From the IMG/VR virus record IMGVR_UViG_3300032321_001270, positions 1 through 64,000 of that record: a stretch of 64,000 nucleotides of DNA. The stretch is one strand, 5' to 3'. Positions 13,984 to 63,433 of the stretch are shown piece after piece. Every line of letters begins with the position of its first letter. Position 1 is the first letter of the stretch. Source of the stretch: a virus. Taxonomy: Duplodnaviria > Caudoviricetes. Made by a program: the position numbers and the translations under genes. A model generated the notes under the pieces. That model saw nothing but the letters and a program-made list of their open reading frames with translations, searched no databases and had not been told where the DNA came from.

Positions 13984-13984
13984 G

Positions 13985-48278: not shown

Positions 48279-48307
48279 ATATGACCGTTTTTTGCCCGAT
48301 ATTTAGC
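48279..48307 (-). promoter_or_regulatory. Phage-specific promoter-like motif, copy 1
   Basis: Minus strand GCTAAATA-N12-CGGTCATAT, 81 nt upstream of the 48198 start. Confidence 0.65.
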
Positions 48308-48324
48308 TCTGGGCTTTGATAGCT

Positions 48325-48383
48325 AAACAAAAGCCTGCAGCCCCGGGGCTTGGGCAGCACCCGGGGACTTGCAGGACTTTGTT
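48325..48383 (-). terminator. Intrinsic terminator
   Basis: CCTGCA..CCCCGGG / CCCGGGG..TGCAGG stem flanked by A/T tracts, downstream of the 48398 gene. Confidence 0.6.
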
Positions 48384-48397
48384 GCCGCACTAGGCGA

Positions 48398-49018
48398 CTA
48401 GGCAGCGGCGAGAGCTTGCTTACGGGCCTCACCGATCACCTCCGCGCGGACGCCGGCCTTGAAGAACGTGTAGCACGTCTCCGCCAGCACGCCGCCGGTA
48501 ATGGCGCTCGTCATGATCGCCACCATCTTGGCGGTCTCCGTCGCAGCGCCGGCCGCGATGGCCACACCGCCGATGGTGGTGCCGACGAGGATGCCGCCCG
48601 TGATGGCGACACCGATCGCAGCCGCGCCACACAGGACGTTCACCGCCGAGACGCTGATGTTCTGGGAGGACACCAGCTCGACGATGTAGCCGCGGGCCGC
48701 CATATAGGCGTCCTTGGCCTTGCCGGTCGCCCAGCTCGCCTGTGCGGACAGCCAGTTCAGCGCCGCCGTGAGGAACTCCTTCATGGAGTTGTACACGTGG
48801 CCCATGAACTCGTACACGACGCCGGCGATCTCGACGACGCTCGACAAGAGCGCCTCCAGCGTTTCCGTCGCGCCGACCACGAGAGCCGTGATCGGGCCCA
48901 TCTCCACCGGCTTGGGGCGACGACGGCCGGTGCCGCCGAGACGGACAACCTTGCCCGTCTTGTTCTTCGCCTTGACGCCGCCGTGACCGCCGACCGTCTT
49001 CTTCGTCTTCGTCTTCAT
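48398..49018 (-). CDS. Membrane protein with a Lys-rich N-terminus
   Basis: MKTKTKKTVG...; long Ala/Gly/Ile hydrophobic hairpin; GGAG RBS. Confidence 0.6.
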   Translation of the reverse strand: MKTKTKKTVGGHGGVKAKNKTGKVVRLGGTGRRRPKPVEMGPITALVVGATETLEALLSSVVEIAGVVYEFMGHVYNSMKEFLTAALNWLSAQASWATGKAKDAYMAARGYIVELVSSQNISVSAVNVLCGAAAIGVAITGGILVGTTIGGVAIAAGAATETAKMVAIMTSAITGGVLAETCYTFFKAGVRAEVIGEARKQALAAA

Positions 49019-49103
49019 CTGAGGTTCTCCCAAAACATGGTTAGTTACACAGAAGCTCGGGTAACTTAGTCCGAGGACGCCAATAACACATTGGCATCAT
49101 TAG

Positions 49104-49132
49104 ATATACCCGCTTTTCGGCTTTTATTTAGC
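49104..49132 (-). promoter_or_regulatory. Phage-specific promoter-like motif, copy 2
   Basis: GCTAAATA-N12-CGGGTATAT. Confidence 0.65.
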
Positions 49133-49134
49133 TA

Positions 49135-50277
49135 TTAGCCGAGATCGCGGGTCTTGAGCACCAGCTTTTCCTGCGCGGGCCATAACAGCATCTGCTGCAT
49201 GGTATCCACGCTGGTGACATCCTTGAGCAGCTTGAGGGCTACCTGCGGATTCGCCTGTATTATCTCTGGAGCTGGCTTCGCTTCCTTGCACGCCAGAGAT
49301 AAGTCTTCATGCCGGGTGAACGTATCCCACTTCCAATCTTTACCGTTCTTGGGGTTGTGCTTTTTCAGCTCCCCATTCAGGTAATGATTAGTTTGCACAA
49401 GGCCGTGTTTCCTTGTGCGAATGTAGGTATGTTCCCCGGTATGTGCTACGACCGTATGTTCCTTGGGTTGCGTGCCAACGACGTGTGCAAAGAATGGCAC
49501 CATCGTTCGCTGCGCGCGTAACCCAAGAATTAACTTCTCGTAGCTTGGCATCTTGTCGCAGACGGCTCTGACCCGGTGCAATGCGGGCCATGCCTGTAGA
49601 AACTGCGGAACCGATGTCACGGCGTTTGTCGCGTTCGCAAACACCGAAGTTAACGTACCCCACCAGCTGTCGTCGTTTTCCTCGTCTTCTTCTTCGTCAA
49701 CGAGGGACTTCACGATTGGAGCTTGGTTCACGACCAGACCCCATTGGTCGCTCATCGCGCTGACCACGCCCACCATGCCCGCAACGCCCACCGAAGTGTA
49801 GCTTTTGCGGCCGCGATGAAACCTGATCAGGCGCGTGTGCTTCCCTGTGGAAGGCGGCGTGACCCAGTCCATGTTGCGCACAATCATGGGGCTGGAATCA
49901 ACATCGAAGCTGGCGGAACTGCACCCACAACCGTACATCTCTGAAAGAGACGTAAAGTCATAGATTAAGTTCCCCAGCAGGAGTTTCCCCACAGGAACTT
50001 CAGCGTGCTGCGCAATGCAACTGAGTTCCTGCGGGTATTCGAGTCCGGCGCGCTCCAAGAGCCACCGGGTGATCGAGCCTCCGCCGCTTGCCAGCATCTT
50101 CACGGCAGCACGTGTGCTTTCGGAAAGATGTGGCAAGATGTCCTCGTCGATGTAATCTTCTACATCTCCGAGGATGGACTGAATTGCATCTCCGTTTTTG
50201 ATAGCAAAATCAGTCCAGCGCTCGTCTGGTGGTTCCTCCAAGTCGATGTCATAGATCTTCCCTGTGTAGAGTTTCAT
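49135..50277 (-). CDS. Acid ceramidase/NAAA-like Ntn hydrolase
   Basis: IDLEEPPDERW N-terminus; nucleophile C-S-S-A after GCG; RNMDW; VQTNH. Confidence 0.75.
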   Translation of the reverse strand: MKLYTGKIYDIDLEEPPDERWTDFAIKNGDAIQSILGDVEDYIDEDILPHLSESTRAAVKMLASGGGSITRWLLERAGLEYPQELSCIAQHAEVPVGKLLLGNLIYDFTSLSEMYGCGCSSASFDVDSSPMIVRNMDWVTPPSTGKHTRLIRFHRGRKSYTSVGVAGMVGVVSAMSDQWGLVVNQAPIVKSLVDEEEDEENDDSWWGTLTSVFANATNAVTSVPQFLQAWPALHRVRAVCDKMPSYEKLILGLRAQRTMVPFFAHVVGTQPKEHTVVAHTGEHTYIRTRKHGLVQTNHYLNGELKKHNPKNGKDWKWDTFTRHEDLSLACKEAKPAPEIIQANPQVALKLLKDVTSVDTMQQMLLWPAQEKLVLKTRDLG

Positions 50278-50552
50278 ATGACACGTACTTTCTGGTTGAA
50301 CCATTCACGCACGAACACTTCGGCCGTGGCCCTGAGCGTGACACCCTGAGCCAAAGCCATTTTCTCGACCGCCGCGAGTTCGGGGCCAAGGATCTTTTTC
50401 CAGTTTTCGACACACATGTCTGTGTGCCGCTGGATCTCTTCTTCCGTCGGGTTCTCTGGCGGAAACTCGGTTGGCGTGCTGATCTTGGCCAGATCCTGCA
50501 CTGCCACGTCACGCCGGTCACGCCGTTCTTCGCTGGTGATGAACCTAACCAT
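50274..50552 (-). CDS. Hypothetical protein
   Basis: AAGGAGG RBS; ATGA overlap with the downstream gene. Confidence 0.6.
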   Translation of the reverse strand: MVRFITSEERRDRRDVAVQDLAKISTPTEFPPENPTEEEIQRHTDMCVENWKKILGPELAAVEKMALAQGVTLRATAEVFVREWFNQKVRVI

Positions 50553-50623
50553 GGCGCACCTCCTTGGCTGCTTTAAGCGCAGCAGGACACAGATCTGCCC
50601 AATACACTACTGGGCGTCACTGA

Positions 50624-50652
50624 ATATGACCGGAATTGAGCTTTTATTTAGC
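50624..50652 (-). promoter_or_regulatory. Phage-specific promoter-like motif, copy 3
   Basis: GCTAAATA-N12-CGGTCATAT. Confidence 0.65.
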
Positions 50653-50654
50653 TA

Positions 50655-52148
50655 TCAGCGCTGGGCCGCCGGAACGATGCCCTGCAGCTGGCCCCACGTT
50701 CTGGCGTCGGTTGTCGGGCCGCCCCACGCAGTCAGATTTGTGCGAATCTTGTCGCCGGTGATCGTGTTGCTCATGTTTCGGCGCCCCATGCCGGCCATAA
50801 CGCGCTCGAACCTAGCACTTGCGTCAGCCAATGCCTGCTGGGCTTGTTGCGTATCGCCAAAGCGCGGAAAACCACCGGGAGCAGCGCCGGGCATACGCAT
50901 CCGTGCCGTAGGCGCTTGTGCCGGGCGCTTGTTTGCGCGCATGAGATAATTATGCACGTTTTCCATGATGTCTGGGTGGCGCATTAAGCTCTCACCGCGG
51001 GCTGCAGCGAGCGGGCCAGCCACAGACGGATGCACGTTGGCGATGTTTAACTTGGGGGCTACAGCCTTGGCCGCCGTATTAGCTACGGCCTTTGCGCCAC
51101 CACCAAATAACCGACCAAGGCCGCCAAAGTTGAGCCCGGCTTCTTTGCCAAACTCATACGCGCTGGAGCACTTGCAGTTCCATTTGCGCAGGGATTTATT
51201 AATGCGCGAGTCTGGGTCTTTCTTTGTATCGGCGCCAGTGTTTACGCGTTTCATGCCACACATCCGGGAGCAAAAAGAGTTCTGGCGCTTGGCCCGATCG
51301 CCTTTAGGATTGCTCTCGGTGACGGGTGCTTTCAGGTGGCCGCCCGTGGCTTTGTTATAGCTGGCGCGCCCCTTGGCGTTGAGGCCGCCTTCGTCATTCT
51401 TGCCGGCAGATCGTTGCCACGCAGGTGTGCCGGCCAGCTTTTCGCCGCCTGCTGAGTTCGCTGTACCAAGGGCGGCATTGCCATTGATATCACCCGTCGT
51501 GGACAGCCCGCCAAAGGCATTGATCGGGTTGGCGTTAGCCGAGTTTCCACCGCCTACAGGTGGCAGTTGACCCTCGGCGCCGGTGGGAGCAGGGGTAGCC
51601 GGGCTGGCGGCCTGCTGGGGCGCCTGTGGAGCTTGTGACTGCATCCCCATGGGCAGGGGCGTACCCATCGCGGGCATGGCGTATCGCTTAATTCCGGCGT
51701 TTGCAGGCACCATGGCGGCATCGCGGGCCTCCTGTTCAGCCTTTTCGTTCTCTAAAGCCTGCTGGATGGATTGCGATAACACTGCAGAAAGCTTCGCCAT
51801 CAAGCTGTTTACGCCGGTTTTGGGCATATTTCCACACCCACACGAATCCTGCTTGGTTTTCTTTACTTCTGTCTGTTCTTGGCCCGCATACGTTGGCTTT
51901 TCCCCCTGCGGCATAGCGACTCGGACCTCTGTAACCCCACTTTTCTTCAAGAACTTGGCGTAAATATCGAGGGCGACGGAGTTTACAGCAGATTGTTTAT
52001 TGTTTGTTTCCACAGGTTCGTCCTTTTTATTCTTATGCGCATACAGGGGGAGCTTTTTCTGGTTTGGATACTCATGCGCCCAGCGTTTCGCAATATCTGG
52101 ATGCTCGGCCCAGAGAAATCTGCGCTGCTTTTCTGACTTGAATGGCAT
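50655..52148 (-). CDS. Modular virion-associated protein (MPFKS N-terminal module, DUF6321-like module, K-x-A motifs)
   Basis: MPFKSEKQRRFLWAEHPDIAKRW; EKLA then AWQRSAGKNDEGGLNAKGRASY...SFCSRM...SRINKSLRKWNC; SAYEFGKEAG. Confidence 0.6.
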   Translation of the reverse strand: MPFKSEKQRRFLWAEHPDIAKRWAHEYPNQKKLPLYAHKNKKDEPVETNNKQSAVNSVALDIYAKFLKKSGVTEVRVAMPQGEKPTYAGQEQTEVKKTKQDSCGCGNMPKTGVNSLMAKLSAVLSQSIQQALENEKAEQEARDAAMVPANAGIKRYAMPAMGTPLPMGMQSQAPQAPQQAASPATPAPTGAEGQLPPVGGGNSANANPINAFGGLSTTGDINGNAALGTANSAGGEKLAGTPAWQRSAGKNDEGGLNAKGRASYNKATGGHLKAPVTESNPKGDRAKRQNSFCSRMCGMKRVNTGADTKKDPDSRINKSLRKWNCKCSSAYEFGKEAGLNFGGLGRLFGGGAKAVANTAAKAVAPKLNIANVHPSVAGPLAAARGESLMRHPDIMENVHNYLMRANKRPAQAPTARMRMPGAAPGGFPRFGDTQQAQQALADASARFERVMAGMGRRNMSNTITGDKIRTNLTAWGGPTTDARTWGQLQGIVPAAQR

Positions 52149-52337
52149 GGCGTAGCTCGTGATGGCGTGAACTTAAAGGAAATACCGAATAGTTCACGGA
52201 GTGCGGCTGTTCCCAAGCTGAATACGCCCATTTTGGCAGAAGAGGCGTGTGAAGAAAAGGGCGGGTAAGTGTGTCTGGTATAGTGAAGTTGATTTGTTAC
52301 ACACATCACGTCACTGAATGGTGACAAGGAGGGCGCC

Positions 52338-52661
52338 ATGCGGCTGCTATGGATTAGTTTACTTGCCCTAAGCTGCGTGATTGGTGCGGGAAGTGCTTTT
52401 GGTGAGAGCTTGTTGATGTTTTCTGCTGACTGGTGCAAATACTGTCAGAAAGCCAAGGCTGATCTGCTGGAGAAGCAAGACAGCGTACAGGAATGGAACT
52501 TGGATATTGTCGATATTGAACAAGAGCGCGAGTTAGCCCGGCAGTTTGCGCTCAAGAGTCTGCCCACGTTTATCGTACTGGACGACGACGGCCGGGAAAT
52601 GCGCCGGCTCGTTGGGTACCACGGTTTTGATAACTTAAAAGCGTGGGTCGAGAAGCGCTGA
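52338..52661 (+). CDS. Exported thioredoxin-like protein
   Basis: Signal peptide; FSADWCKYC; LPTFIV...GRE; AAGGAGG RBS; only convincing plus-strand gene in the window. Confidence 0.8.
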   Translation: MRLLWISLLALSCVIGAGSAFGESLLMFSADWCKYCQKAKADLLEKQDSVQEWNLDIVDIEQERELARQFALKSLPTFIVLDDDGREMRRLVGYHGFDNLKAWVEKR

Positions 52662-52691
52662 TAGCTAAAAAAAACGGAGAGTAGGTTTGCC

Positions 52692-53084
52692 CTATCTCTC
52701 CGTTTTAATTCCAGTATTTTTCTCGCGAAATATGGGCGCTTCAAGTAACGTGACAACGATAAACTCCTCGTTACTAGATAAACTACAGTCGTAATAAATA
52801 GAAAGCACCGGGGTGTCCAACACAGCGAAAAAAGATTTAGTGAAATAATCTGCTCCAGCATTCACCATGAGACACCGGCGCACAGATTTCAATAAGTCAC
52901 TGTCGATGGCGGGTGTAGCGGCAAACCGTTTTTCGGTCTCTGTTAACATGCCCGAAATACGGACAACGAACATATCAGCTATGATGCACGTTTTTATGTT
53001 ACTTGCGCCTTTTCCCATGTATTGCTGCATGAACTTGTTTACTGCAACACATATGGCAGCTTCGGCTTCTCCTTGCGTATACAT
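52692..53084 (-). CDS. DUF2294 (MpsC-like) family protein
   Basis: TQGEAEAAI...MGKGASNIKT...GMLTETEK...SIYYDCS...EEFIVVTL pattern. Confidence 0.65.
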   Translation of the reverse strand: MYTQGEAEAAICVAVNKFMQQYMGKGASNIKTCIIADMFVVRISGMLTETEKRFAATPAIDSDLLKSVRRCLMVNAGADYFTKSFFAVLDTPVLSIYYDCSLSSNEEFIVVTLLEAPIFREKNTGIKTER

Positions 53085-53124
53085 ATAGGCTCCACGAAGA
53101 GTGATAAAGACCAGCGGACATGTA

Positions 53125-53153
53125 ATATGCCCGGGTTTTGATAACTATTCAGC
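53125..53153 (-). promoter_or_regulatory. Phage-specific promoter-like motif, copy 4
   Basis: GCTGAATA-N12-CGGGCATAT. Confidence 0.6.
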
Positions 53154-53169
53154 CAGAGAGCTAATAGCT

Positions 53170-53215
53170 AAAAAAAGCGCACGCAGGGTCAGGGAAGAAT
53201 ACCTGCGTGCGCTTT
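53170..53215 (-). terminator. Intrinsic terminator
   Basis: AAAGCGCACGCAGG / CCTGCGTGCGCTTT stem with a T7 run on the minus strand. Confidence 0.75.
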
Positions 53216-53236
53216 CGCCTACTTCGAGAACTAGCA

Positions 53237-53437
53237 TCAAGCCAGTACTTCGTCGTAGGTCTGTTCCAACGGGTTGATGATGAGCCGGGGCTTGGGCTCG
53301 GGAGCTGGTTTGGGAGGCGCAACTACAGGAGCCTGCCAGCGTTCAGTCAGGTCGGTCCACGCAGGATCGATCTTGACCTTCTCGCACACCCAGCCCACGA
53401 ACGCCAGACCACCAAAGACCATGCAGGCCGTGGCCAT
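53237..53437 (-). CDS. Small single-TM protein
   Basis: 66 aa; hydrophobic N-terminus; Pro-rich tail; AAAGGA RBS. Confidence 0.5.
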   Translation of the reverse strand: MATACMVFGGLAFVGWVCEKVKIDPAWTDLTERWQAPVVAPPKPAPEPKPRLIINPLEQTYDEVLA

Positions 53438-53505
53438 GCTATTTCCTTTCTATAAAGCAGATAGAGGCCAGACGTAATTTTTGGCTTACGCCTCTCTATC
53501 ATCAA

Positions 53506-53534
53506 ATATGCCCGACTTTAGGGCAGTATTTAGC
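53506..53534 (-). promoter_or_regulatory. Phage-specific promoter-like motif, copy 5
   Basis: GCTAAATA-N12-CGGGCATAT. Confidence 0.65.
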
Positions 53535-53535
53535 T

Positions 53536-53622
53536 TCACAGAAAGACAACGATGCTCAGGTCGTCATCATCATCGTCAAAGTCAAACTCGATGCCGTAGA
53601 TATGCTTGGATGCGTTTGTCAT
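53536..53622 (-). CDS. 28-aa acidic peptide (missing from the ORF track)
   Basis: GAGG RBS then MTNASKHIYGIEFDFDDDDDDLSIVVFL-TGA. Confidence 0.45.
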   Translation of the reverse strand: MTNASKHIYGIEFDFDDDDDDLSIVVFL

Positions 53623-53769
53623 ATCTGTACCTCGCGACGACAGGTTTCAAAAACGTGTCGCTATTATATCGTTTTGATAACAATTCCCTTTCTGTAAGAA
53701 AACCGTATACGGCTTTCTTACAAAAGAAATGACGTAACATGTTGTCAAATAACAAGTTACGTCTAATAG

Positions 53770-54441
53770 CTAAAAAAATCCTGCACGGTGGGCCCGAAGG
53801 CCGCCCGCGGCGTCGTACTGCTGAGCGCAACCCAGCAGCCGTACGCCTCCGATGTGGCGGACTTGGTAGTCCGAGCCCCGTGTGTGGATTAAACACGTAG
53901 GGGCTTTTTAGTTCGTCCTCGGGTTGCGGCGTTCCTTGGGAACGACTTAGACAACCTGTAACAAACCATATCCACGTAACTCTCCTGACGATAAAGACGT
54001 TTCAGGAGAGCCAATGCGTCGGCGCTCTAAAGCAGTACACCGACGGCAGAGAATTCGCGCACCAAAGAGGCGCGTTCCCGGGCTACGTTGCCATAGCTCC
54101 AGCACACACAATTACGGATTGTTACTGCCGTGGCGCCTCCGTATGGTGTTGTGCAGTACACCGGGCGTCCACGAGCAGGCCGAAGTTTCATCGGCACCCT
54201 ATTGTTTAACGTGATAGGTTGGCACGGTACGTTCTTGCGCTGGCAGCAGCTTTCACGGCTTCTTCAGTTACGATTCCTCGCAACTTTATTACCGTGTGGA
54301 CTGTACATACGCAGCCCGAACCTCCCATGGAAGCAGCATGGACGGGGGAGGCTCCATGCCGCGCTATGACCAACCATCAACCGCCGCTGGCTGTCACACT
54401 CAGCCAGCGGAAGACGCAGAGTCTCACACAAACTCTGCGTC
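53770..54441 (-). ncRNA. Candidate large structured non-coding RNA
   Basis: No convincing ORF; about ten hairpins including a C(UUCG)G loop; ends in a T7 run. Confidence 0.35.
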
Positions 54442-54669
54442 GATGACGGTGTAGCTGTCGTACTCTTCCTGCAGAAGAGCCGCAGCATCACCGTCAAGAA
54501 TTGCAGCCTCGGCGGGAATGCAAACGCAGACGCCGAGTTCCAGCCCGCAGTGCAGGCAGTGTTCAATGTCCGTGTCGGGCGGCGCAATGGCCACGGCGAA
54601 CACAAACAGCATGTCCCGGCAGTCGTCCACGTTGACCTTCACCGCCGGGTTGTTACGGAGCTGACTCAT
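54424..54669 (-). CDS. Hypothetical protein
   Basis: 81 aa; AAGGAGG RBS; CxxC (CLHC). Confidence 0.55.
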   Translation of the reverse strand: MSQLRNNPAVKVNVDDCRDMLFVFAVAIAPPDTDIEHCLHCGLELGVCVCIPAEAAILDGDAAALLQEEYDSYTVIDAEFV

Positions 54670-54850
54670 TTCAATCCTCCTTGAAGAAATAAAACAACCG
54701 CCGTCTCGTGGCGGCTCACGCTAATGGTCTCTCGCCATTAGACGGCCCCACCTATCACCGGGCAGGGGGTACGGCGAGGGGTGCTATAACTTCATGCGTA
54801 AAGCCAGTGGATGTACCACTGCCGCGGCAAGAGCTATAGGCCCTCAATAG

Positions 54851-54879
54851 ATATGCCGCGTTTTTGGCAGATATTTAGC
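54851..54879 (-). promoter_or_regulatory. Phage-specific promoter-like motif, copy 6
   Basis: GCTAAATA-N12-GCGGCATAT. Confidence 0.6.
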
Positions 54880-54888
54880 TACTGGCTA

Positions 54889-54953
54889 ATAGCTAAAGAA
54901 AGCGTACGCTTTGCGGAGCCGTCGCCTCCGCTGCCCACAAATTAATAACGCCC
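54889..54953 (-). repeat. Terminator-containing ~65-bp repeat, copy 2
   Basis: Shares the 24-bp identical core and flanks with 47876-47940. Confidence 0.8.
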
Positions 54954-55448
54954 GGCCTCTTCTTCGTCGGCCTCGTGCTCGGCTTCCGCCCATTCAGCCT
55001 GCCGCTCTGCCAGCGCTTTATCATCCAGCCCGAACGTTTCAAGTTCCAGCTTTTTCCTGCGCGCTTCGCGCTCAGCCTCCGCCTCTGCCTCTTCATATTG
55101 CATACGATCCTCGCGCATGCGATCTTCAAATTCAAGATCTTCAAGAGAGATGTCGTGCGCCTCGGCTTCAAGCTCTTCTTTCTTTTCACGGTCTATGGCG
55201 ATGTAAAGCTCCGCCTTGACCGCGTCAAGTGAAAACGCGCCCTGCGGGCAAAAGCAATTGCGGCTACCGTACGTAGCGTCACTCAGATGCACGTACTTGT
55301 AGCCGCGCAACTCAAGCAGCTCAACCAGCGCCATTGCCGTATAAGGATCGGCAGCCGTACCAACGTACTGGCGACCCACGCTGTATACACCATCATCGGC
55401 GTTCTTAATGCCGTGAACGCGCATGCTACCGTCGGGGAAGGTAATCAT
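54942..55448 (-). CDS. Hypothetical protein with an acidic coiled C-terminus
   Basis: Start re-called at MITFPD (AAAGG RBS); Glu-rich. Confidence 0.55.
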   Translation of the reverse strand: MITFPDGSMRVHGIKNADDGVYSVGRQYVGTAADPYTAMALVELLELRGYKYVHLSDATYGSRNCFCPQGAFSLDAVKAELYIAIDREKKEELEAEAHDISLEDLEFEDRMREDRMQYEEAEAEAEREARRKKLELETFGLDDKALAERQAEWAEAEHEADEEEAGRY

Positions 55449-56077: not shown

Positions 56078-56179
56078 GAAGTCTGCTCGTTACAGCCCTC
56101 TGCATGCACCTAGAGATAGGTTCATACACATGCTTCTCACGAGCGCTTCTTGTGCCAACAGCAGTGACAGTTTAGTAAC

Positions 56180-56467
56180 TTAGCTGATCTGGTCAATCGC
56201 CCGCACAATCGAGGCGGCATAGCGCTGGCTGATCTCGTCTGCCTCGCCGCCGTCATACTGCACGTGAATCTCGCGTTCCCATTTCAGGACCGCTGCCCGG
56301 ATCTGCGCCAGAGATTTACGCATTGATTTCAGCTCAATCTCCGGTTCGGTCTTGTACCTCGTCCCGCTCTTCGTGTTCACTGTCGGTTCCAACGCTGCTT
56401 TCTCCTTGTGGACTACTTCCTGCCACCATTGGTTGTTCCAGTTCGTCGCCGTCCGTGTCGCTGGCAT
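56180..56467 (-). CDS. Hypothetical protein (start uncertain)
   Basis: Overlaps the upstream ORF; the true start may be MRKSLA. Confidence 0.4.
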   Translation of the reverse strand: MPATRTATNWNNQWWQEVVHKEKAALEPTVNTKSGTRYKTEPEIELKSMRKSLAQIRAAVLKWEREIHVQYDGGEADEISQRYAASIVRAIDQIS

Positions 56468-56648
56468 CTGTATACGCTATTAACAGCGCTTCCTTGAGGG
56501 TGTCGATCAGGGTGTTAGCGCAATCATCCACGACTTTACGCAGATGATCCATTCTGTCAATCGTTTCGCGCATCTCGTCTCTGGTTTTCACCAGTACCTC
56601 AGCGAGTTTGAGCAGTCCTTGCGCCATTGCTAACGGTAGTTCTTCCAC
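56334..56648 (-). CDS. Hypothetical protein with an acidic tail
   Basis: 104 aa; GGAG RBS. Confidence 0.5.
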   Translation of the reverse strand: MEELPLAMAQGLLKLAEVLVKTRDEMRETIDRMDHLRKVVDDCANTLIDTLKEALLIAYTDASDTDGDELEQPMVAGSSPQGESSVGTDSEHEERDEVQDRTGD

Positions 56649-56660
56649 GCAGTTCTCCTT

Positions 56661-56990
56661 TTACCGTAGGTCATCGAACGATTCTTTTAAGCCCACTGCC
56701 CGGTCTGCCAAGTACTGGGCGACAAGAGTCATCACGTCAATAATGCCTTGGTTCTCGTGTACACGCCGGGCTTCCGTGGGCGAGTACGCGCCAAAACACG
56801 TCACGCTAAGCAAGATAGGGCGAACCTTTTCTAGCGCTTTTACATCTGTCAGATCTGCAGGCGAGAAACCAGCGTCGGTCACCTCGATTGACTCGATGTG
56901 GCCTAGTTGGTCACCAATCATGCCGTCTTCCAGCGCGTGATTGCAGGCATCACGCAACGCTTCCACGAACCAGCGGCAGTTCTGGTTCAT
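56661..56990 (-). CDS. Hypothetical protein
   Basis: ATGA coupling with the upstream gene. Confidence 0.55.
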   Translation of the reverse strand: MNQNCRWFVEALRDACNHALEDGMIGDQLGHIESIEVTDAGFSPADLTDVKALEKVRPILLSVTCFGAYSPTEARRVHENQGIIDVMTLVAQYLADRAVGLKESFDDLR

Positions 56991-57289
56991 GACGCCACCT
57001 TCTCAGCGGGTTTGACGCTATCAGCAATCTGGTCGCGCAGCTGGCCCTCAGCCTCGGCCCACTTGTCGAGAATGAGGTTGGCGAGCGGGCTGTTGACCTT
57101 CTGCAAAAACTCCTCGATCTCAGGGGCCAACGCCGCCAGCGCCAGCAGCTTCGGCTCACACTCACAAGTGTTGCCGATCTCCAGCACATAGTGTCCGGCC
57201 TCGTCCGCGATGGAGCCGCGGACGTGGTGGTGGCTGGGCATCGAACCCAGCGCGCGCAGTGCAGCAAAAAGCATAGATTGCTCCTTCAA
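56987..57289 (-). CDS. Hypothetical protein
   Basis: 100 aa, coupled to neighbours. Confidence 0.5.
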   Translation of the reverse strand: MKEQSMLFAALRALGSMPSHHHVRGSIADEAGHYVLEIGNTCECEPKLLALAALAPEIEEFLQKVNSPLANLILDKWAEAEGQLRDQIADSVKPAEKVAS

Positions 57290-57483
57290 GGGTAAATGGG
57301 GTAAATCTTCTCATTGAACGCCACGAACGCCGGTATTCCGTGCTCGTTTGGCAGCCGGGCTGCCGGATCATCAACGACATGATCGTCGACCTTTACACGA
57401 CCCTCAACGATCGCGCGCCGGGCCATAGACGTGTCGATGTTGGCGCACTTTGACAATACATCAACCAGTGGTGTGGTAGCCAT
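57286..57483 (-). CDS. Small S4-like RNA-binding domain protein
   Basis: SMARRAIVEGRVKVDDHVVDDP. Confidence 0.6.
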   Translation of the reverse strand: MATTPLVDVLSKCANIDTSMARRAIVEGRVKVDDHVVDDPAARLPNEHGIPAFVAFNEKIYPIYP

Positions 57484-57485
57484 AA

Positions 57486-58103
57486 TTAGTCCCACAGGGC
57501 TTGGTAGTACTTACCGAACAGAGTCGTTCCACGGCGGATACGCTCCTCGTGGGCCTGAAGACCGTCATAATCGCATTTCAGCTTTCTGAAGCCTTCGGGC
57601 CACTTATCAACATCGGGCAAATCGTCGCGGCCTTCCCAGAACTTATCGTCATGATTTGAGTCGTTCAACTGCTCGAATGCCCAAATCATTTCGCCCATGA
57701 TCCACTCCCACCGCTTGTCATGAAGCTGGTCGGGAGTACCGCAATTCTTTTCTTCTTCTTCGGTCAACGCCGGTGCAGCGCTGGACCGAAGTTCTTCCGG
57801 GACGTCCGTGTCGTCTGTGAAAGGATAACCGTGCTGGGTCGCCTGCAGCTGCTTGAGCAACGGCAGAATGATGGGCGCCAGCGTGCTATCGATATTCCAC
57901 GTGTCATAGTCGTGGATTTTGATAGCAATACGCCGCGTCCGAAACCGCGAATGAAACCACTCGCAAAACGCGTTCAGCCACGTCTTGCTCAGCCGCTTTC
58001 CGATCTCGTGGCAGCGGTCCTCGGACACGCCCACATACTGCAGCAGGTCAGCCAGCTGATACGGACCAGTCCAGCCCGGATAGGGGCCAATGTAAACCTT
58101 CAT
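57486..58103 (-). CDS. Conserved phage hypothetical protein
   Basis: MKVYIGPYP...GPYQLA...YDTWNIDSTLAPIILPLLKQL...FGKYYQALWD, a pattern recalled from large myoviruses. Confidence 0.65.
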   Translation of the reverse strand: MKVYIGPYPGWTGPYQLADLLQYVGVSEDRCHEIGKRLSKTWLNAFCEWFHSRFRTRRIAIKIHDYDTWNIDSTLAPIILPLLKQLQATQHGYPFTDDTDVPEELRSSAAPALTEEEEKNCGTPDQLHDKRWEWIMGEMIWAFEQLNDSNHDDKFWEGRDDLPDVDKWPEGFRKLKCDYDGLQAHEERIRRGTTLFGKYYQALWD

Positions 58104-58396
58104 GAATCCTCCCTGAAACGAGGCCAATCGTGCGCACAACTCGGACAACGCCAGAAACTCACGCCGTCGTAATGATCTGGATGGTCATACGACAACTGCA
58201 CACCAATGAGACGGCTAAACTTATACGGGGGTGAATAATGCTCCCGTATCCACGCGTGCAGCTCCTCATCACTCTTATTGTCGCACCACGCTTGCGAACG
58301 TAGCGCGTCAAAGACATCGCCGGCATCCCAGTTAACACCGCATTCCGGGCACCGGCCGAATGGGTCCAACTTTGCTGTCTCTTCATTAAGTCGCAT
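58100..58396 (-). CDS. Zinc-ribbon hypothetical protein
   Basis: RCPECG...WRCPSC. Confidence 0.55.
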   Translation of the reverse strand: MRLNEETAKLDPFGRCPECGVNWDAGDVFDALRSQAWCDNKSDEELHAWIREHYSPPYKFSRLIGVQLSYDHPDHYDGVSFWRCPSCAHDWPRFREDS

Positions 58397-58637
58397 CGGC
58401 AAGCTCCTTCTGCGTGACGACGATAAACGAATCTTTCCCCGGCAACAGCGCCAAGCCGCGGCCGTTATCCCAGCGCACTGAGATCTGATGCCACTCTCGC
58501 GGGCCTTCAAAATTAACGGCGATAATCGTACCTTCCAATCCGACTGGCATATCCTTTTCAATAGGCATCCAATCAGAGTTCGGGTTGAGCATCGGTCCAG
58601 TTAATTTAACTCGCTGGCCGACTGCGTACGGTTCCAT
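58386..58637 (-). CDS. DUF4314-like protein
   Basis: VGQRVKL...MPVGLEGTI...ISVRWDNGRGLALLPGKD. Confidence 0.65.
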   Translation of the reverse strand: MEPYAVGQRVKLTGPMLNPNSDWMPIEKDMPVGLEGTIIAVNFEGPREWHQISVRWDNGRGLALLPGKDSFIVVTQKELADAT

Positions 58638-58663
58638 AACTGACTCCTGGGTGAGTAGATATC

Positions 58664-58721
58664 AAAAAAACAGGCGAGCCGGGCTGAGGCATGGCGAAAC
58701 ATACCCCAGCCCGGCTACGCC
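58664..58721 (-). terminator. Intrinsic terminator
   Basis: GGCG.AGCCGGGCTG / CAGCCCGGCT.CGCC stem plus T7. Confidence 0.65.
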
Positions 58722-58733
58722 AACAACACGCCG

Positions 58734-59333
58734 TCAGTCGTTCAGCAGCTCGGCGAGACGTTTGATCCCGCCGTGCCGCAGCACGAGACGGGTCACCGGG
58801 GCACGCTTCTTCTTGACAATCCGCGTAGCCAACTTCTTCACCGACACCTTGAACTTGTGCACAGCCGCCTTGGCCTTGCGCTTCTTCTTGCCCTGTGGGC
58901 TGGCCTGCTCCCGATGACTTTCCGACATCGGATTCAGCCTGTACAAGCCCGGGGGCAGCTTCCATCGGCCGTTGGGCCGATCGAACTTCCTGATCTGCGC
59001 ACGCAGACAGCCGGGCGTGGTGAACCGCACCTCGATCTTCTTTTTGACGTCGAAGATCTTGGTGATACCAGCGCCGATCTGGTAATCGAACTGACTGCCT
59101 GTTGCTTCGTCGAGCGCAAGCGCGACGACGCAGTAGCGGGCATCACCCGGCACAGCGTCAGCGATGTGCTGCGCTGAGATGTTGAACCAGAACGGTTCTC
59201 GGGCCAGCACGATCGTCCAGCTGGGATCGACCTCGTCCTTGAACGAGTCGCCCATCGCCCGAAGCGGCGAAGACGTATAACGATGTCGCTTGTGCACACC
59301 GTCCTTACGCGTCTTCTTATTATTAACAGCCAT
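58734..59333 (-). CDS. Basic hypothetical protein
   Basis: 199 aa, Lys/Arg-rich termini; GGAG RBS. Confidence 0.55.
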   Translation of the reverse strand: MAVNNKKTRKDGVHKRHRYTSSPLRAMGDSFKDEVDPSWTIVLAREPFWFNISAQHIADAVPGDARYCVVALALDEATGSQFDYQIGAGITKIFDVKKKIEVRFTTPGCLRAQIRKFDRPNGRWKLPPGLYRLNPMSESHREQASPQGKKKRKAKAAVHKFKVSVKKLATRIVKKKRAPVTRLVLRHGGIKRLAELLND

Positions 59334-59398
59334 GACAGAACGTCTCCCTACGTTTCATCGAACCACTGAACAACCCACGACAACGTGCCGAGGGCAAG

Positions 59399-59433
59399 AA
59401 AAAAAACCGGGCGGGCCCTTTACGGTCCGACCC
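59399..59433 (-). terminator. Intrinsic terminator closing the tmRNA/ncRNA unit
   Basis: GC-rich hairpin with GTAA loop followed by T8. Confidence 0.6.
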
Positions 59434-59434
59434 T

Positions 59435-59767
59435 ATAACCCAAGACTAGCTGCAGCTCTTCTTGGAACCCCTCCACGTCGGCAGCACGCCACGAGATTCC
59501 CCGCAACGATAGCCAAAGGTAAGGAGTACCCGGTTAAACAACGTTGTGACGGACACGCAGGCCGTCACGGGATATAGGACTTCGGGCTCATGCGTGAATA
59601 TTTGCCCCAGTTTCCCGGCTAACCTTTTTGAGGCGCCTTCGTCCACTACGTTGTTGTTCGAGACCCGGCTGTTAATTCAGCAATCTTACCCGTTGAAAGA
59701 TAAGACGCGGACGCAATGCCGCGGTGTTAATTCACTTCACTACCCGATGAAGGATAGTTCCGGGCTA
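59435..59767 (-). ncRNA. Candidate ~330-nt structured RNA downstream of tmRNA
   Basis: No credible ORF; nested long-range helices, GAAA tetraloop, own terminator. Confidence 0.45.
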
Positions 59768-60112
59768 TGGAGGCGGCGGGAGTCGAACCCGCGTCCAGAG
59801 ATATCTCCAGAAAGAACGTCTACGTGTGTAGGCAGTTGTTGTTTACACTCTTGCCAAAGTTAGCCGATTATCGGCGTCAGGTGGGCTACCACCATCTTGC
59901 CCTTTCTTACTGGGCCAGATCAGCCGATTATCGGCGTCAACCTGATTGGGCAATAAGGCTCAGGTCGCCTCACTCACTGGCCTATTAACTAGGCAGCGAG
60001 GGCCGGTGCAAAAGCGCCAGCTAGAAACGTAATCGGCTTTTAACGTGGCCAACCGATCAACCACGACACGCAGTCCTAACCTTCCTTATCCTGTCGATAC
60101 CAGTACGCCCCC
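59768..60112 (-). ncRNA. ssrA: tmRNA
   Basis: 5' GGGGGCGTACTGGTATCGAC and 3' GGACGCGGGTTCGACTCCCGCCGCCTCCA with a G3.U wobble; pk1; tag ORF ending ALAA-TAG (59989-60021); CCA not encoded. Confidence 0.92.
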
Positions 60113-60336
60113 GTATTGTTGTTGGCCATATTCCCATTGTGAGGCTGCGGCGCTGGTGGGCGCCTGCGTTTACCGCCAGCTCTTTTTAACGTAATTTATC
60201 TGGCGGCACCAACAACAAATTGAAAATCTCGCCGCAGGGATGTGGTGATTACACGTAGTTGCTACGCTCCCACGCACATTGAGGCTCATAACTTCCCCCT
60301 GCATTTCGCATCGCTGTACACACGCTGCCGAGACAA

Positions 60337-60410
60337 TAACCCGGGTGGGAGTCGAACCCACAACAAGTAGATCCTAAGTCTACCGCCTCTGCCAGTTGTG
60401 CTACCGAGTT
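60337..60410 (-). tRNA. tRNA-Leu (TAG) with a short variable loop
   Basis: GTAGA-CTTAGGA-TCTAC; T-loop TTCGACT; 5-nt variable region. Confidence 0.85.
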
Positions 60411-60547
60411 AAAAATTGATGAGTGTCGATTAGGGGTCGCTTCCGATATACGAGCCACGTGGATAGGCATACCGGGAAATCGAACTTAAAACCTCACTAC
60501 CTCCTGCCGGGGATCAGCCGGAACAGTTCAATGGTTTTACTCATCAA

Positions 60548-60620
60548 TGACCCCACGGGGATTCGAACCCCGGTAAACGGAACGAAAATCCGTTGTCCTA
60601 GGCCACTAGACGATGGGGCC
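60548..60620 (-). tRNA. tRNA-Glu (TTC)
   Basis: ACGGA-TTTTCGT-TCCGT; full cloverleaf. Confidence 0.92.
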
Positions 60621-60629
60621 ATTGTCGTC

Positions 60630-60815
60630 TCAGTCTACCTTCTCGACGTTTAGCGCGATAAGAAAACCACACATTTGCGCGAACGTGATCAGCTGCTTCT
60701 CTTTGAGTTTGAAGAAATCTGCAAAGTGAGTAAACAGATCACAAGGCGACAGATCTGTCGGGTTTTGCGTTTCGCGCAACTTAGATATCAATTCAGCGGC
60801 TCTTTCCAGCGTCAT
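60630..60815 (-). CDS. Hypothetical protein
   Basis: Start re-called at MTLERA (AAGGAG RBS). Confidence 0.5.
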   Translation of the reverse strand: MTLERAAELISKLRETQNPTDLSPCDLFTHFADFFKLKEKQLITFAQMCGFLIALNVEKVD

Positions 60816-60851
60816 CTTCTTGCTCCTTCGTGTAAAGATAACAAAACTCAT

Positions 60852-60922
60852 TGGGCCGCCAAGGAATCGAACCTTGCGTCGCGAGTTAATAAGACTCGCT
60901 TGCCTACCAGTTTCCGCGGCCC
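60852..60922 (-). tRNA. tRNA-Ile (TAT) with a reduced D-arm
   Basis: Perfect acceptor, T and anticodon stems (CGAGT-CTTATTA-ACTCG); only 17 nt between acceptor and anticodon stems. Confidence 0.75.
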
Positions 60923-60985
60923 GCGTGGGCGGGGCGCCAGCAGCTTGGGCTACTGCCAGCGCCCCGCCGTCAGCGAGTCTAACGC

Positions 60986-61330
60986 TTACCGATAGCGCTT
61001 GCACGCATACCAGCGGCCATCCCTGCCTCGCGCGACCCCTTGATCAACAACCCTCATTCCGCTGCGGCTGTAGCAGCAGTTATTCAGAGCCTGCTCGGGC
61101 GTGGAACCGGCGCCAACACCCTCGTAGCCTGAATTACCACCACAGTGCCCCATAGCACCGCGACTTGCCTGCATCTCTGCGACGCCTTGCGCCGTAGAGT
61201 TAGTGTAGGCATAGCTGCGCACAGACGGGATTGGCGTCGAACTGGTATAGCGTCGTACTACAACAGGGCCGTCGGCATGCGCAACGCCGACAACAGAGAG
61301 CGCCAATAGCGAAAGAAAAACGCGAATCAT
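60986..61330 (-). CDS. Exported small protein, CAP/SCP-like C-terminus
   Basis: Signal peptide; GHCGG..GYEGVG...ALNNCCY...GVARGRDGRWYACKRY. Confidence 0.55.
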   Translation of the reverse strand: MIRVFLSLLALSVVGVAHADGPVVVRRYTSSTPIPSVRSYAYTNSTAQGVAEMQASRGAMGHCGGNSGYEGVGAGSTPEQALNNCCYSRSGMRVVDQGVARGRDGRWYACKRYR

Positions 61331-61392
61331 ACGATCCTCCGTGACAAACCAAACAAACCACAGCCCGGAACATTTCTGCGCCGGGCTGACAG

Positions 61393-61466
61393 TAGGCGCA
61401 AAGGGACTCGAACCCCTAACCCCCTGCGTGTAAAACAGGTGCTCTGACCAATTGAGCTATGCGCCT
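61393..61466 (-). tRNA. tRNA-Val (TAC)
   Basis: CCTGT-TTTACAC-GCAGG; full cloverleaf. Confidence 0.92.
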
Positions 61467-61472
61467 GCGAGT

Positions 61473-61829
61473 CTAACCCGCGTGTTCTAACTCTCGACGA
61501 CGACGTGCTCGTGCCCAAGGCGACCGATTCCAATACCAGCCCCGCCAACGATTGCAATATCCACGCCACCGCCGGCGCAACTTGTGATACCACTTGTTGC
61601 GGCCGATGGTGGTTAAATAATGCTGCGTCCAGAAGCTCATCGACTCGTCCGATGTTCCGTCGATATAGCTTTCCCCGCAATCGAAGCACCGATTCGCCGG
61701 TACGCGAAACACCGGAACTTGGTGTTGCTGTCCGTCAATCAGCATCGACATGACGTCATTGAATTCAACGGCTTCAATACGCCCACCGCAGTGCATGCAC
61801 TTTAACGACTTGTAAATTGGCTTACCCAT
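61473..61829 (-). CDS. YgiT/MqsA-type zinc-finger protein
   Basis: CMHCGG...VPANRCFDCGESYID; GGAGG RBS. Confidence 0.6.
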   Translation of the reverse strand: MGKPIYKSLKCMHCGGRIEAVEFNDVMSMLIDGQQHQVPVFRVPANRCFDCGESYIDGTSDESMSFWTQHYLTTIGRNKWYHKLRRRWRGYCNRWRGWYWNRSPWARARRRRELEHAG

Positions 61830-61841
61830 GTCGCCCTCCAA

Positions 61842-61926
61842 TGGCCAAGGCGGGAATCGAACCCGCACGGGAAGTTATTCCCAGCGGATTTTAAGTCCGC
61901 TGCGTCTGCCGTTTCGCCACTCGGCC
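61842..61926 (-). tRNA. tRNA-Leu (TAA)
   Basis: GCGGA-CTTAAAA-TCCGC with a long variable arm. Confidence 0.95.
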
Positions 61927-61935
61927 AACCGCCTG

Positions 61936-62232
61936 CTAAACCAGCGCCGGATCTTCCCGCTCGGCGGGAGCAGGATACTTGTCGGGGTGACCGATGTGCA
62001 TGAACTTATCGCGCCCCGACCGACTATGCGTGCCGCATCCTGATCGCAAAATCATTGCTTCCTTGAAGTACTGATACACGCGATCGATGTCCAGATACTC
62101 ACGATACGTCAACCCAGCCTCCAATTGCCGCGGCCGATCCAGCATTTCTCGCAGCGTATTCAAATGCTCGGCGATCTTGTCGTTGTAGTACTCGGCCGTC
62201 GTTTCCAGATCATCTTTGCCGTTGTTGATCAT
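61936..62232 (-). CDS. Hypothetical protein
   Basis: Start re-called at MINNGK (GAGG RBS). Confidence 0.5.
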   Translation of the reverse strand: MINNGKDDLETTAEYYNDKIAEHLNTLREMLDRPRQLEAGLTYREYLDIDRVYQYFKEAMILRSGCGTHSRSGRDKFMHIGHPDKYPAPAEREDPALV

Positions 62233-62440
62233 ACACGTACCTCTTGTCCCCAATTTGACACCACCAACGCTGCCCATCATTCCAGTAGATGGGTGTAACA
62301 GACGCTGACGGGGGTTGCAACTCGGTCGGTTTCGGGTGGGCTTTTTGATACTCTTCGTAGCTTTCCCACGCGATTCCGGCCAACATCAGCAACGCCGTGA
62401 TCAACCCGATTAAGTTACCTTTAATCTCGATCCCCTTCAT
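62210..62440 (-). CDS. Small single-TM protein
   Basis: AAGGAGG RBS; LIGLITALLMLAGIAW. Confidence 0.55.
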   Translation of the reverse strand: MKGIEIKGNLIGLITALLMLAGIAWESYEEYQKAHPKPTELQPPSASVTPIYWNDGQRWWCQIGDKRYVYDQQRQR

Positions 62441-62486
62441 TTCAAACCTCCTTGTTTAGAAATGAAACCCAAAAAGAATCCCCCAA

Positions 62487-62560
62487 TGCCTCCTCTAGGA
62501 TTCGAACCTAGGACCAACGGATTAAAAGTCCGATGCTCTAACCAGCTGAGCTAAGGAGGC
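62487..62560 (-). tRNA. tRNA-Lys (TTT)
   Basis: TCGGA-CTTTTAA-TCCGT; full cloverleaf. Confidence 0.95.
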
Positions 62561-62593
62561 CCAACGTTTAACGCCTGTTGGTGGCGAAGCGCT

Positions 62594-63157
62594 TTACCGT
62601 GCGCCAGCGTTCGTGAGGCGGCATGAGCCGTCTTGGCACGCAGGACCGGCCTGCAATTCCTCACGAGTTACCTCACGGACGTTGCCGCCCATCAGGTGTG
62701 CTTTCCACTTGCCGCGCACTTTGTGCAGGACAAGTTCAAACTCGCACAACTCCCACGGCGGAAGCATAGCTGAGCGCGAGCGAAACTCGGAGTACGGGAG
62801 GTCTTTGTCATCTTCTCCGCCGGCAAGAGTTTCTTGCACGACTTTGACGGTGACTGTTTGTCCGTACTCGGTCATCTCGGCAGAAACGAAGTCAACAGAT
62901 ATAAGCCGCGCATACACGTCAACCTCGTCAAAAAACTGTTTGAGTTCTTTGACAAAAGTTTCTCGATTAGGTGTGTAGGGCGTCATCGTATCCATTACCG
63001 CGTCAACATCCTCGGCGTTGCTAGCGGCGAGGTTTTGTTGAACGACCGTCTCGATGAGCTGCATTTCTTTTTTGCCGCGAGCGTTTAAACCCGCAGCGGA
63101 AGCAATGCCGGCCATCATCAGAACAGTCAAAATTACAGAGGTCACAACTTTAATCAT
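62594..63157 (-). CDS. Exported NTF2/SnoaL-like protein
   Basis: Signal peptide; NAEDVDAVMDTM...HKVRGKWK pattern. Confidence 0.5.
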   Translation of the reverse strand: MIKVVTSVILTVLMMAGIASAAGLNARGKKEMQLIETVVQQNLAASNAEDVDAVMDTMTPYTPNRETFVKELKQFFDEVDVYARLISVDFVSAEMTEYGQTVTVKVVQETLAGGEDDKDLPYSEFRSRSAMLPPWELCEFELVLHKVRGKWKAHLMGGNVREVTREELQAGPACQDGSCRLTNAGAR

Positions 63158-63338
63158 CTCGCTGACTCCTTGTTAAACAGATGTGAGCAAAGCCGCCGCA
63201 AAGCGCCCAGCCCACAAATGCGCCCGTTACGTCTACCGCTTCTCCCATTTGGAAGGACCGCGCTGCTTCTAGCCCAAGAACAGCGCCGGCCACGGTACAC
63301 GCAACGATCAAGATTTCACGGACAATCGGGTATGGCAT
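63150..63338 (-). CDS. Two-TM small membrane protein
   Basis: AAGGAGG RBS; two hydrophobic helices. Confidence 0.55.
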   Translation of the reverse strand: MPYPIVREILIVACTVAGAVLGLEAARSFQMGEAVDVTGAFVGWALCGGFAHICLTRSQRDD

Positions 63339-63404
63339 GTCATCCTCCTTGCACCGCCCGAATGTGTGCTATATCCACGAACACATATTCGCGGGGCACA
63401 AGGA

Positions 63405-63433
63405 ATATGCCCGATAATTAGCAGAAATTTAGC
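63405..63433 (-). promoter_or_regulatory. Phage-specific promoter-like motif, copy 7
   Basis: GCTAAATT-N12-CGGGCATAT, 67 nt upstream of the 63338 start. Confidence 0.6.

Follow-up and report, generated by a model that had tools for sequence, protein, structure and literature searches.

A putative sigma-28-register promoter class in a family of large phages that encode both an RNA polymerase and a sigma factor

Introduction

How does a phage with genes for its own multisubunit RNA polymerase mark the sites where transcription begins? The question is raised by a bipartite motif, GCTRAATW-N12-CGGGCATAT, in the IMG/VR virus record IMGVR_UViG_3300032321_001270, a phage genome of 205,188 bp (54% G+C; CheckV completeness, 100%). 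We analyzed its first 64 kb, here called the window. The initial annotation of the window took seven copies of the motif for early promoters read by the phage RNA polymerase, the two forming a cognate pair. Our analysis supports the call of promoters; the pair is plausible only as a holoenzyme, that is, as the phage sigma factor together with a core enzyme.

According to reviews, a sigma homologue is missing from giant phages that have a multisubunit polymerase of their own, and phage sigma factors occur in phages that lack a polymerase (PMC7824862, PMC13282480). The phage family described here joins both traits that the reviews keep apart, along with a rigid class of putative promoters in the sigma-28 register. 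Apart from the annotation of Salmonella phage Arash, we found no paper on a phage polymerase that works with, or packages, a sigma-70-family factor, and none on this motif.

Results

Nine copies of the motif stand ahead of genes

The window holds three exact matches to the motif and seven at up to three mismatches, all on the minus strand; the four inexact copies differ by one or two mismatches. Dinucleotide-preserving shuffles of the window gave 0.51 matches on average, and the seven intergenic copies first reported are real in this sense. We scanned the whole genome with a weight matrix trained on the same nine sites that it scores; these sites reached 40 to 51 bits, the next best position reached 10 bits, and there was no tail of weak copies. 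Two sites lie outside the window (genome positions 97444-97472 and 162850-162878). The other seven cluster in 48.3-63.4 kb, and the 1-47 kb block has none, as had been noticed from the start.

All nine copies lie on the minus strand and outside called genes, 33 to 277 nucleotides (nt) upstream of a minus-strand start codon. For the seven in the window the distance is 41 to 182 nt when counted as in the initial annotation, which had given this range. The gap between the two boxes is 12 nt at every site. Two copies adjoin stop codons (49104 and 50624), and three come just after a hairpin with a T-tract (48279, 53125 and 54851), in keeping with the earlier remark that several follow a terminator or a stop codon. 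Since 231 of the 240 genes in the whole genome are on the minus strand (simple codon-usage gene call), the orientation shared by motif and genes is less striking. The copies in the window, given here as the two boxes plus a conserved TG, are as follows (aa, amino acids; tmRNA, transfer-messenger RNA).

48273-48307, minus strand: promoter copy 1; heads an 85-aa gene (47941-48198), followed by a terminator
49098-49132, minus strand: promoter copy 2; adjoins the upstream gene's stop codon; stands ahead of a 206-aa gene (48398-49018)
50618-50652, minus strand: promoter copy 3; adjoins a stop codon and heads a 92-aa gene and a 380-aa NAAA/acid-ceramidase-like gene (49135-50552)
53119-53153, minus strand: promoter copy 4, exact match; after a terminator; heads a 130-aa gene (52692-53084)
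53500-53534, minus strand: promoter copy 5, exact match; stands ahead of a 66-aa gene (53237-53437)
54845-54879, minus strand: promoter copy 6; after a terminator; followed by a structured leader of about 170 nt and an 81-aa gene (54424-54669)
63399-63433, minus strand: promoter copy 7, exact match; stands ahead of small genes together with genes for five tRNAs and a tmRNA
59765-62560, minus strand: cluster of RNA genes downstream of promoter copy 7 (tRNA-Lys, Leu, Val, Glu and Leu, and tmRNA)

The tmRNA gene in this cluster is full length (59765-60112, minus strand; Rfam RF00023, 119.7 bits against a gathering score of 47).

The motif is conserved in a large family of relatives

A search of a phage collection returned no near-identical or close relative, the only DNA matches being to tRNA-Lys. 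An exact scan of IMG/VR for GCTAAATW-N14-GGCATAT found at least 119 loci. Among the matches listed, 63 loci belong to clear relatives, whose encoded proteins are 25 to 100% (mostly 40 to 85%) identical to those of this phage. We collected 86 distinct motif copies from relatives' loci found by the exact pattern and judged conservation on the columns outside that pattern. Conserved there are W at position 8, CAAAA at 14 to 18 and C at 20 and, after the second box, T30, A32, T34 (78 of 86 copies) and G35 (67 of 86). The flanks fall to background immediately on both sides, which sets the length of the element at about 36 nt. The 12-nt spacer had been described as variable; its length is fixed, but its sequence is not free, given the preference for CAAAA.

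Five complete relatives of about 200 kb hold 8 to 13 copies each at up to two mismatches, almost all on one strand, while a reversed control pattern gave 0 to 2 matches in the same genomes. When the gap between CTAAAT and GGCATAT was allowed to range from 11 to 20 nt, 30 of 30 exact matches in these five genomes had the same spacing and lay on one strand, with no control matches. The rigid 12-nt spacing extends from the nine sites of this genome to its relatives. The motif also recurs at syntenic positions: 21 copies lie upstream of homologues of genome genes 162413 and 161820. It is conserved across a large family of uncultured phages of about 200 kb.

The geometry is that of the sigma-28 class

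The published Escherichia coli sigma-28 consensus is TAAAGTTT-n11-GCCGATAA (PMC2859248). In the open complex on the Pseudomonas aeruginosa fliC promoter, TCTAAAG occupies positions -36 to -30 and GCCGATAA positions -15 to -8, with A-11 flipped out (PMC12784957). We set the register of our motif by placing the invariant A of CATAT at -11, and the motif then reads G-36 C-35 T A A A-31 T-30 ... S-15 G-14 G-13 C-12 A-11 T-10 A-9 T-8 T-7. The first box agrees with the sigma-28/FliA class's -35 element, TAAA within TCTAAAG roughly from -36 to -30: the invariant CTAAA takes up motif positions 2 to 6, which correspond to -35 to -31. The spacing agrees as well, with 11 nt between octamers and 15 nt after TAAA in the nine sites and in the 30 exact sites of relatives. 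The -10 box does not agree. Its octamer, SGGCATAT, matches GCCGATAA at three or four of eight positions, and GCA replaces the CGA core. The second box, GGCATAT(T), does hold A-11 and T-7, which all sigma-70-family factors capture, together with the G at -14 of an extended -10.

Judged from these letters, we take the motif to be a sigma-70-family two-box promoter in the sigma-28/FliA register and not an exotic signal. It had been said to bear no likeness to TTGACA/TATAAT. This is right in that sigma-70 consensus sites are not enriched between 47 and 64 kb (7 found, 9.5 expected), but the geometry is nevertheless that of the sigma-70 family. With sigma-28/FliA promoters the motif shares the position of CTAAA relative to the -10 adenine, the distance between boxes and a composite -10 with G/C-rich bases upstream of ATA; it differs from them in having GGCATAT(T) instead of GCCGATAA, a preferred A-tract in the spacer and a conserved TG near the start.

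Could the flagellar sigma factor of the host, FliA (sigma-28), read these sites on the host polymerase and so tie the first phage genes to motile cells? The -35 box and the box-to-box spacing are of the sigma-28 type, and TAAATTTT sites match the TAAAGTTT octamer at seven of eight positions. The poor -10 octamer, with GGC in place of the CCG core, a part that FliA cannot do without, argues against it: in the E. coli aer promoter, a changed -10 core (the aer206 mutant) lowered activity from 223 to 12 units (PMC2859248). Moreover, the phage has a sigma factor of its own that is better conserved across the family than many other proteins (65 to 87% identity against 40 to 70%), and the motif is uniform over many metagenomic relatives. 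We regard reading by host FliA as improbable.

In seven of the nine sites, a hairpin in the minimum-free-energy fold starts at motif position 35 to 38. The fold z-scores at the sites of this genome run from -0.75 to -4.7 against shuffles, five of them below -2; the trend is weaker in relatives (mean z, -1.2). Transcription probably starts at motif positions 35 to 37, near the conserved T34-G35, found 4 to 5 nt beyond the second box, which would fit a pyrimidine at -1 and a purine at +1.

We also considered an N4-type hairpin promoter of a virion polymerase. Three or four of the four candidate pairs are possible in only 23 of the 86 copies, and stems of at least four pairs within the promoter occur in 21 of 86 copies and in 8 of 86 shuffled controls. 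With so few copies able to form a conserved hairpin, this type of promoter was ruled out.

Promoters or cassette boundaries?

Seven intrinsic terminators share a tail, T5-7-AGCTATYAG (limits approximate).

47873-47928, minus strand: intrinsic terminator with the tail T-tract-AGCTATYAG
about 48316-48371, 52658-52713, 53161-53216, 53763-53818 and 54886-54941: five further intrinsic terminators with the same tail
genome position about 95,633-95,690: seventh intrinsic terminator with the same tail

This tail is the inverse complement of the (A)TAGCTAAA box of the promoter, and TTTAGCTAAA is a perfect palindrome. Three of the tail-bearing terminators lie 10 to 16 nt before the next promoter, so that the same word, in inverted copies, stands on both sides of cassettes. 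In the loci of relatives, TTTAGCTA occurs 41 times on the promoter strand and 17 times on the other.

This arrangement would also fit a motif that is no promoter at all but a regulator binding site, or a recombination or boundary element of mobile cassettes. The palindrome TTTAGCTAAA has the -35 box as one of its halves, the inverse of the box follows the seven terminators, and 39 of the 86 copies in relatives precede genes without a homologue in this genome, that is, variable cargo. Yet the motif has a strictly one-way orientation relative to genes, its copies lie ahead of start codons and behind terminators or stop codons, its second box has -10 character, and conserved copies stand at syntenic positions of core genes. 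We therefore consider a purely non-promoter role highly unlikely. It is partly compatible with our preferred reading, since a promoter can double as a cassette boundary. Because of their position, orientation, rigid spacing and conservation across relatives with 40 to 85% identical proteins, and because sigma-70 consensus sites are not enriched, the sites are very probably promoters.

The cassettes appear to resemble those of T4-type phages, in which an early promoter and a stem-loop (PeSL) flank small accessory genes. Common to both are small variable genes, each bounded by a promoter and a terminator hairpin, and a promoter that often comes right after a terminator. The promoter sequences are unrelated, however, and in this phage the inverse of the -35 box is part of the terminator tail. 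A weaker possibility is that this inverse box acts on the same sigma factor, releasing or recycling the enzyme at the ends of cassettes.

The phage encodes a sigma-70-family factor

We found a single gene of the sigma-70 family in the genome.

genome 183119-183973, outside the window: three-domain sigma factor gene, a homologue of Arash Gp10 (30% identity, E = 6e-19)

Among Pfam families, Sigma70_r3 scores 38 bits, above its cut-off, and the region 4 match is weak. A profile of 28 members of the sigma family aligns to SigA over regions 2.2 to 4.2 (PDB profile match, E = 1e-8). The predicted fold, with a mean predicted local distance difference test score (pLDDT) of only 67, matches chains of SigA, SigS, SigB and WhiG over 225 to 265 columns in Foldseek. 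Together, the Pfam, PDB profile and Foldseek matches place the domains in the order sigma2-sigma3-sigma4. The best NCBIfam match of Arash Gp10 is FliA/WhiG (E = 7e-12), far below the family cut-off, and an hhalign comparison of the sigma family profile with E. coli FliA was uninformative (19% probability). The sigma factors of sigma-28/FliA systems share with the phage protein three domains without region 1.1 and a VSQ that opens the recognition helix of region 4.2; the phage protein is not a FliA orthologue, its NCBIfam scores being far under the cut-offs, and no flagellar genes are involved.

Region 4.2 reads PGAVSQRAAKIQ in the phage sigma and ESRVSQLHSQAI in E. coli FliA, with VSQ common to both. 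In the P. aeruginosa structure, Q228 is reported to contact positions -36/-35 (PMC12784957). The glutamine of VSQ would be the phage equivalent of Q228, if the residue numbering that we infer holds. Sigma identity is 65 to 87% across the 120 clusters listed of 363 in total (E ≤ 0.001), and the gene sits in a conserved block of structural genes syntenic with Arash gp10-gp13-gp14. We consider it likely that the phage sigma reads these promoters.

A different reading, and the literal one of the initial annotation, is that the phage polymerase recognizes the motif without any sigma-70-family factor, in the style of phages phiKZ and AR9. This genome does encode a multisubunit polymerase, and phage enzymes of this type, as far as they are known, work without a sigma homologue (PMC7824862, PMC13282480). 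The two boxes of our motif, 15 nt apart at a fixed sigma-type spacing and with equivalents of A-11 and T-7, do not fit such a reading, nor does a highly conserved sigma gene with regions 2, 3 and 4 present. Promoters of phiKZ/AR9-type polymerases are single short elements at or near the start, with no -35 box, and by the reviews' account no sigma is found in those phages. Recognition without sigma therefore seems very unlikely.

The phage RNA polymerase is bacterial-like

The genome has only one polymerase set, encoded in the window as two chains.

14964-19379, minus strand: RNA polymerase chain 1, 1471 aa (Pfam); a fusion of beta and the beta' N-terminal half, with the catalytic DFDGD
12103-14025, minus strand: RNA polymerase chain 2, a separate gene; C-terminal half of beta'

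Chain 1 matches the Pfam families Rpb2_6 (180 bits) and Rpb1_2 (87 bits). A search of the genome with PF01000 and PF01193 found no homologue of the alpha subunit. The enzyme is bacterial-like, being 31% identical to residues 160 to 540 of E. coli beta', and it has the clamp helices, in which E295 and R297 are retained. By polymerase, Salmonella phage Arash and Vibrio phages D69, D148 and D181, with about 32% identity, come nearest among named phages; in public metagenome data, over 2000 protein clusters are homologous at E ≤ 1e-10. PHROG annotation of ten neighbors of the polymerase genes yielded almost nothing. A 720-aa SNF2-family helicase (window 42719-44881, minus strand) is a homologue of Arash Gp217 (33% identity), a protein found in abundance together with the polymerase in virion preparations of Arash. 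For the phage polymerase, the helicase may be a partner of the RapA type.

Which core enzyme would the sigma join?

In the mechanism that we propose, the -35 box, (A)GCTAAAT, would be read by the region 4.2 helix GAVSQRAAK of the sigma and the -10 box, GGCATAT(T), by regions 2 and 3. The sigma would, on the whole probably, join the phage's own beta-beta' core; polymerase and sigma would enter with the virion and fire at nine sites, which head small terminator-bounded cassettes, the tRNA/tmRNA operon and two other operons. Most transcripts would carry a stable hairpin at the 5′ end. We hold this reading, with the phage's own sigma on the phage's own polymerase, both delivered by the virion and starting infection from nine sites, with slightly better than even confidence. 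Which sigma and which core are at work, delivery with the virion, the start site and the early timing are points that we infer. As for the word "early" in the initial annotation, it draws on gene content, namely, small cassettes with their own terminators and the tRNA/tmRNA operon, and on the virion proteome of a remote relative. In a genome that is almost one-stranded, the nine promoters could also serve later genes by read-through.

Four considerations favor the phage core: no other candidate signal for the phage polymerase was found; homologues of polymerase and sigma occur together in Arash virion preparations; the phage polymerase keeps the bacterial architecture for binding sigma; and no copy of the motif precedes the polymerase genes or the sigma gene in the genome-wide scan, as expected of proteins made late and carried over. 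Regarding the first, k-mer enrichment and a crude expectation-maximization search of this genome gave no second over-represented intergenic motif; only Shine-Dalgarno sequences, T-tracts, the motif and its terminator tail stood out. Regarding the second, polymerase beta Gp206 was the most detected protein in Arash virion preparations, in which beta' Gp216 and Gp10, annotated as "sigma factor RpoS," were also found, with 3516, 1210 and 467 spectra, respectively (PMC10585845). Normalized to lengths of 1525, 606 and 234 aa, this comes to about 2.3, 2.0 and 2.0 spectra per residue, values compatible with equal amounts of the polymerase chains and sigma.

Several points weigh against this reading. 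The Arash "virion" proteome includes metabolic enzymes such as ribonucleotide reductase, and its authors allow for carry-over of abundant proteins (PMC10585845). In the phage polymerase, R275 of the sigma-binding helices of E. coli beta' is replaced by alanine, and the flap-tip region failed to align; given these two points, sigma may or may not bind the phage core. The sigma itself reads VRTHLLSQLQ in regions 2.3 and 2.4, where SigA has FSTYATWWIRQ and E. coli FliA has FTTYAVQRIRG. T-H replaces T-Y, and there are no tryptophans, which FliA also does without. The protein is without the region 2.3 aromatics that open the -10 box in group 1 sigmas. To our knowledge, every characterized phage-encoded sigma-70-family factor (for example, SPO1 gp28, T4 gp55 and phiEco32 gp36) redirects the host core.

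Distant relatives point both ways. Five genomes with 36 to 54% sigma identity (G006 to G010) all keep the region 4.2 helix GAVSQRAA(K/R), a comparison biased by the fact that they were retrieved through peptide patterns that include this helix. In G006 and G008 there are three or four CTAAA-N18-CATA sites per genome, the flanks being altered, and the control gave no matches; de novo k-mer enrichment in these two gave nothing clear. The exact CTAAA-N18-CATAW site is absent from G007, G009 and G010, though the same helix is kept. By eye and with a loose pattern, three intergenic sites each in G007 and G009 keep CTAAA and the spacing and have another -10 (CATTAT, CAATAG; TACAAT, TAGTAT, TACCAT). 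In Arash, whose 4.2 helix differs, a motif with the CTAAA box is absent from the first 100 kb. Between 18 and 100 kb of that genome (OQ632216), about 20 co-oriented copies of tgGTATAAGtaannTGTAA stand ahead of small genes and tRNA genes. This element has a GGTATAA core and a downstream TG, and the GGYATAW core is common to both motifs; it has no -35 box and has G at the T-7 position needed by sigma-70. By its sequence, tgGTATAAGtaannTGTAA is probably the Arash counterpart of our motif. These contrasts would fit recognition by the phage sigma; with few variant sites and a small sample, they are suggestive only.

The phage sigma might instead read the promoters on the host core RNA polymerase, with the phage polymerase using other signals. 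The precedent of the characterized phage sigmas, which work on the host core, points this way, as does the loss of one known sigma-contact residue from the clamp helices of the phage enzyme. Reviews likewise describe polymerase-bearing jumbo phages as lacking sigma and phage sigmas as recruiting the host polymerase (PMC7824862, PMC13282480). On the other side, no second conserved intergenic motif for the phage polymerase turned up, the polymerase and sigma homologues of Arash were detected together at similar length-normalized levels, and the phage polymerase is unusually bacterial-like, with its clamp helices kept. We judge use of the host core unlikely, if still a serious contender. That the family packages a complete holoenzyme, with its own beta-beta' and a sigma-70-family factor, and starts infection without the host polymerase is a tentative proposal, to which we give somewhat less than an even chance.

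Discussion

Likeness to known systems

The best-known phage sigma factors, SPO1 gp28, T4 gp55 and phiEco32 gp36, have in common with this system a phage-borne sigma and a few near-identical, non-host promoters that head transcription units. Those phages lack a polymerase gene set, and their sigmas work on the host core during the middle or late phase. This phage adds a beta-beta' polymerase; its sigma gene lies in the structural block, and the homologue in a relative is found in virion preparations. The polymerases of phiKZ-like phages and AR9 offer a second comparison, sharing with this phage a giant phage background, a split or fused beta/beta' that is probably injected and a few dozen or fewer phage-specific promoters heading small early genes. 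They differ in that those enzymes have no sigma-70-family subunit; the phage studied here has a single polymerase set instead of two, and its promoter is built of two boxes.

If a packaged holoenzyme proves true, no multisubunit polymerase of a phage would have been shown before to use a true sigma factor. The family is a tractable system in which one can ask how phage polymerases locate promoters and whether a virion can deliver a sigma. With a 36-nt DNA target that is well defined and only three genes to express, it would also give an orthogonal polymerase/sigma/promoter set, and the family is very large in public metagenome data. The map of putative promoters also organizes the accessory region of these genomes into single-gene cassettes.

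Other intergenic elements

A single-copy block, TTTTGTACTAGAATAAACTTCAGTAGAC (window 47775-47830, minus strand), lies after the last cassette terminator and upstream of a 656-aa gene with which the 47-kb block opens. Conserved in two relatives (L039 and L092), this element may be a different promoter, with a -10-like TAGAAT, or a leader element for the block of polymerase and virion-protein genes.

TATACT is 5.9-fold enriched in intergenic DNA, where 5 of its 11 minus-strand occurrences fall. These lie upstream of starts at genome positions of about 31,449 (inside the window), 74,139, 150,314, 199,739 and 203,021, at a distance of about 460 nt for the first and 29 to 58 nt for the other four; one site has a TTGGCG-N17 partner. 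TATACT might serve as the -10 in a second class of promoters, sigma-70-like and used by structural operons.

Two stretches within the cassette region gave no match to an Rfam family at E ≤ 0.1. One spans 986 nt without a called gene (window 53438-54423, minus strand), with a terminator at about 53,770; the other is the leader, structured and about 170 nt long, that separates promoter copy 6 from the 81-aa gene (window 54670-54845, minus strand). They may be noncoding RNAs or an attenuator.

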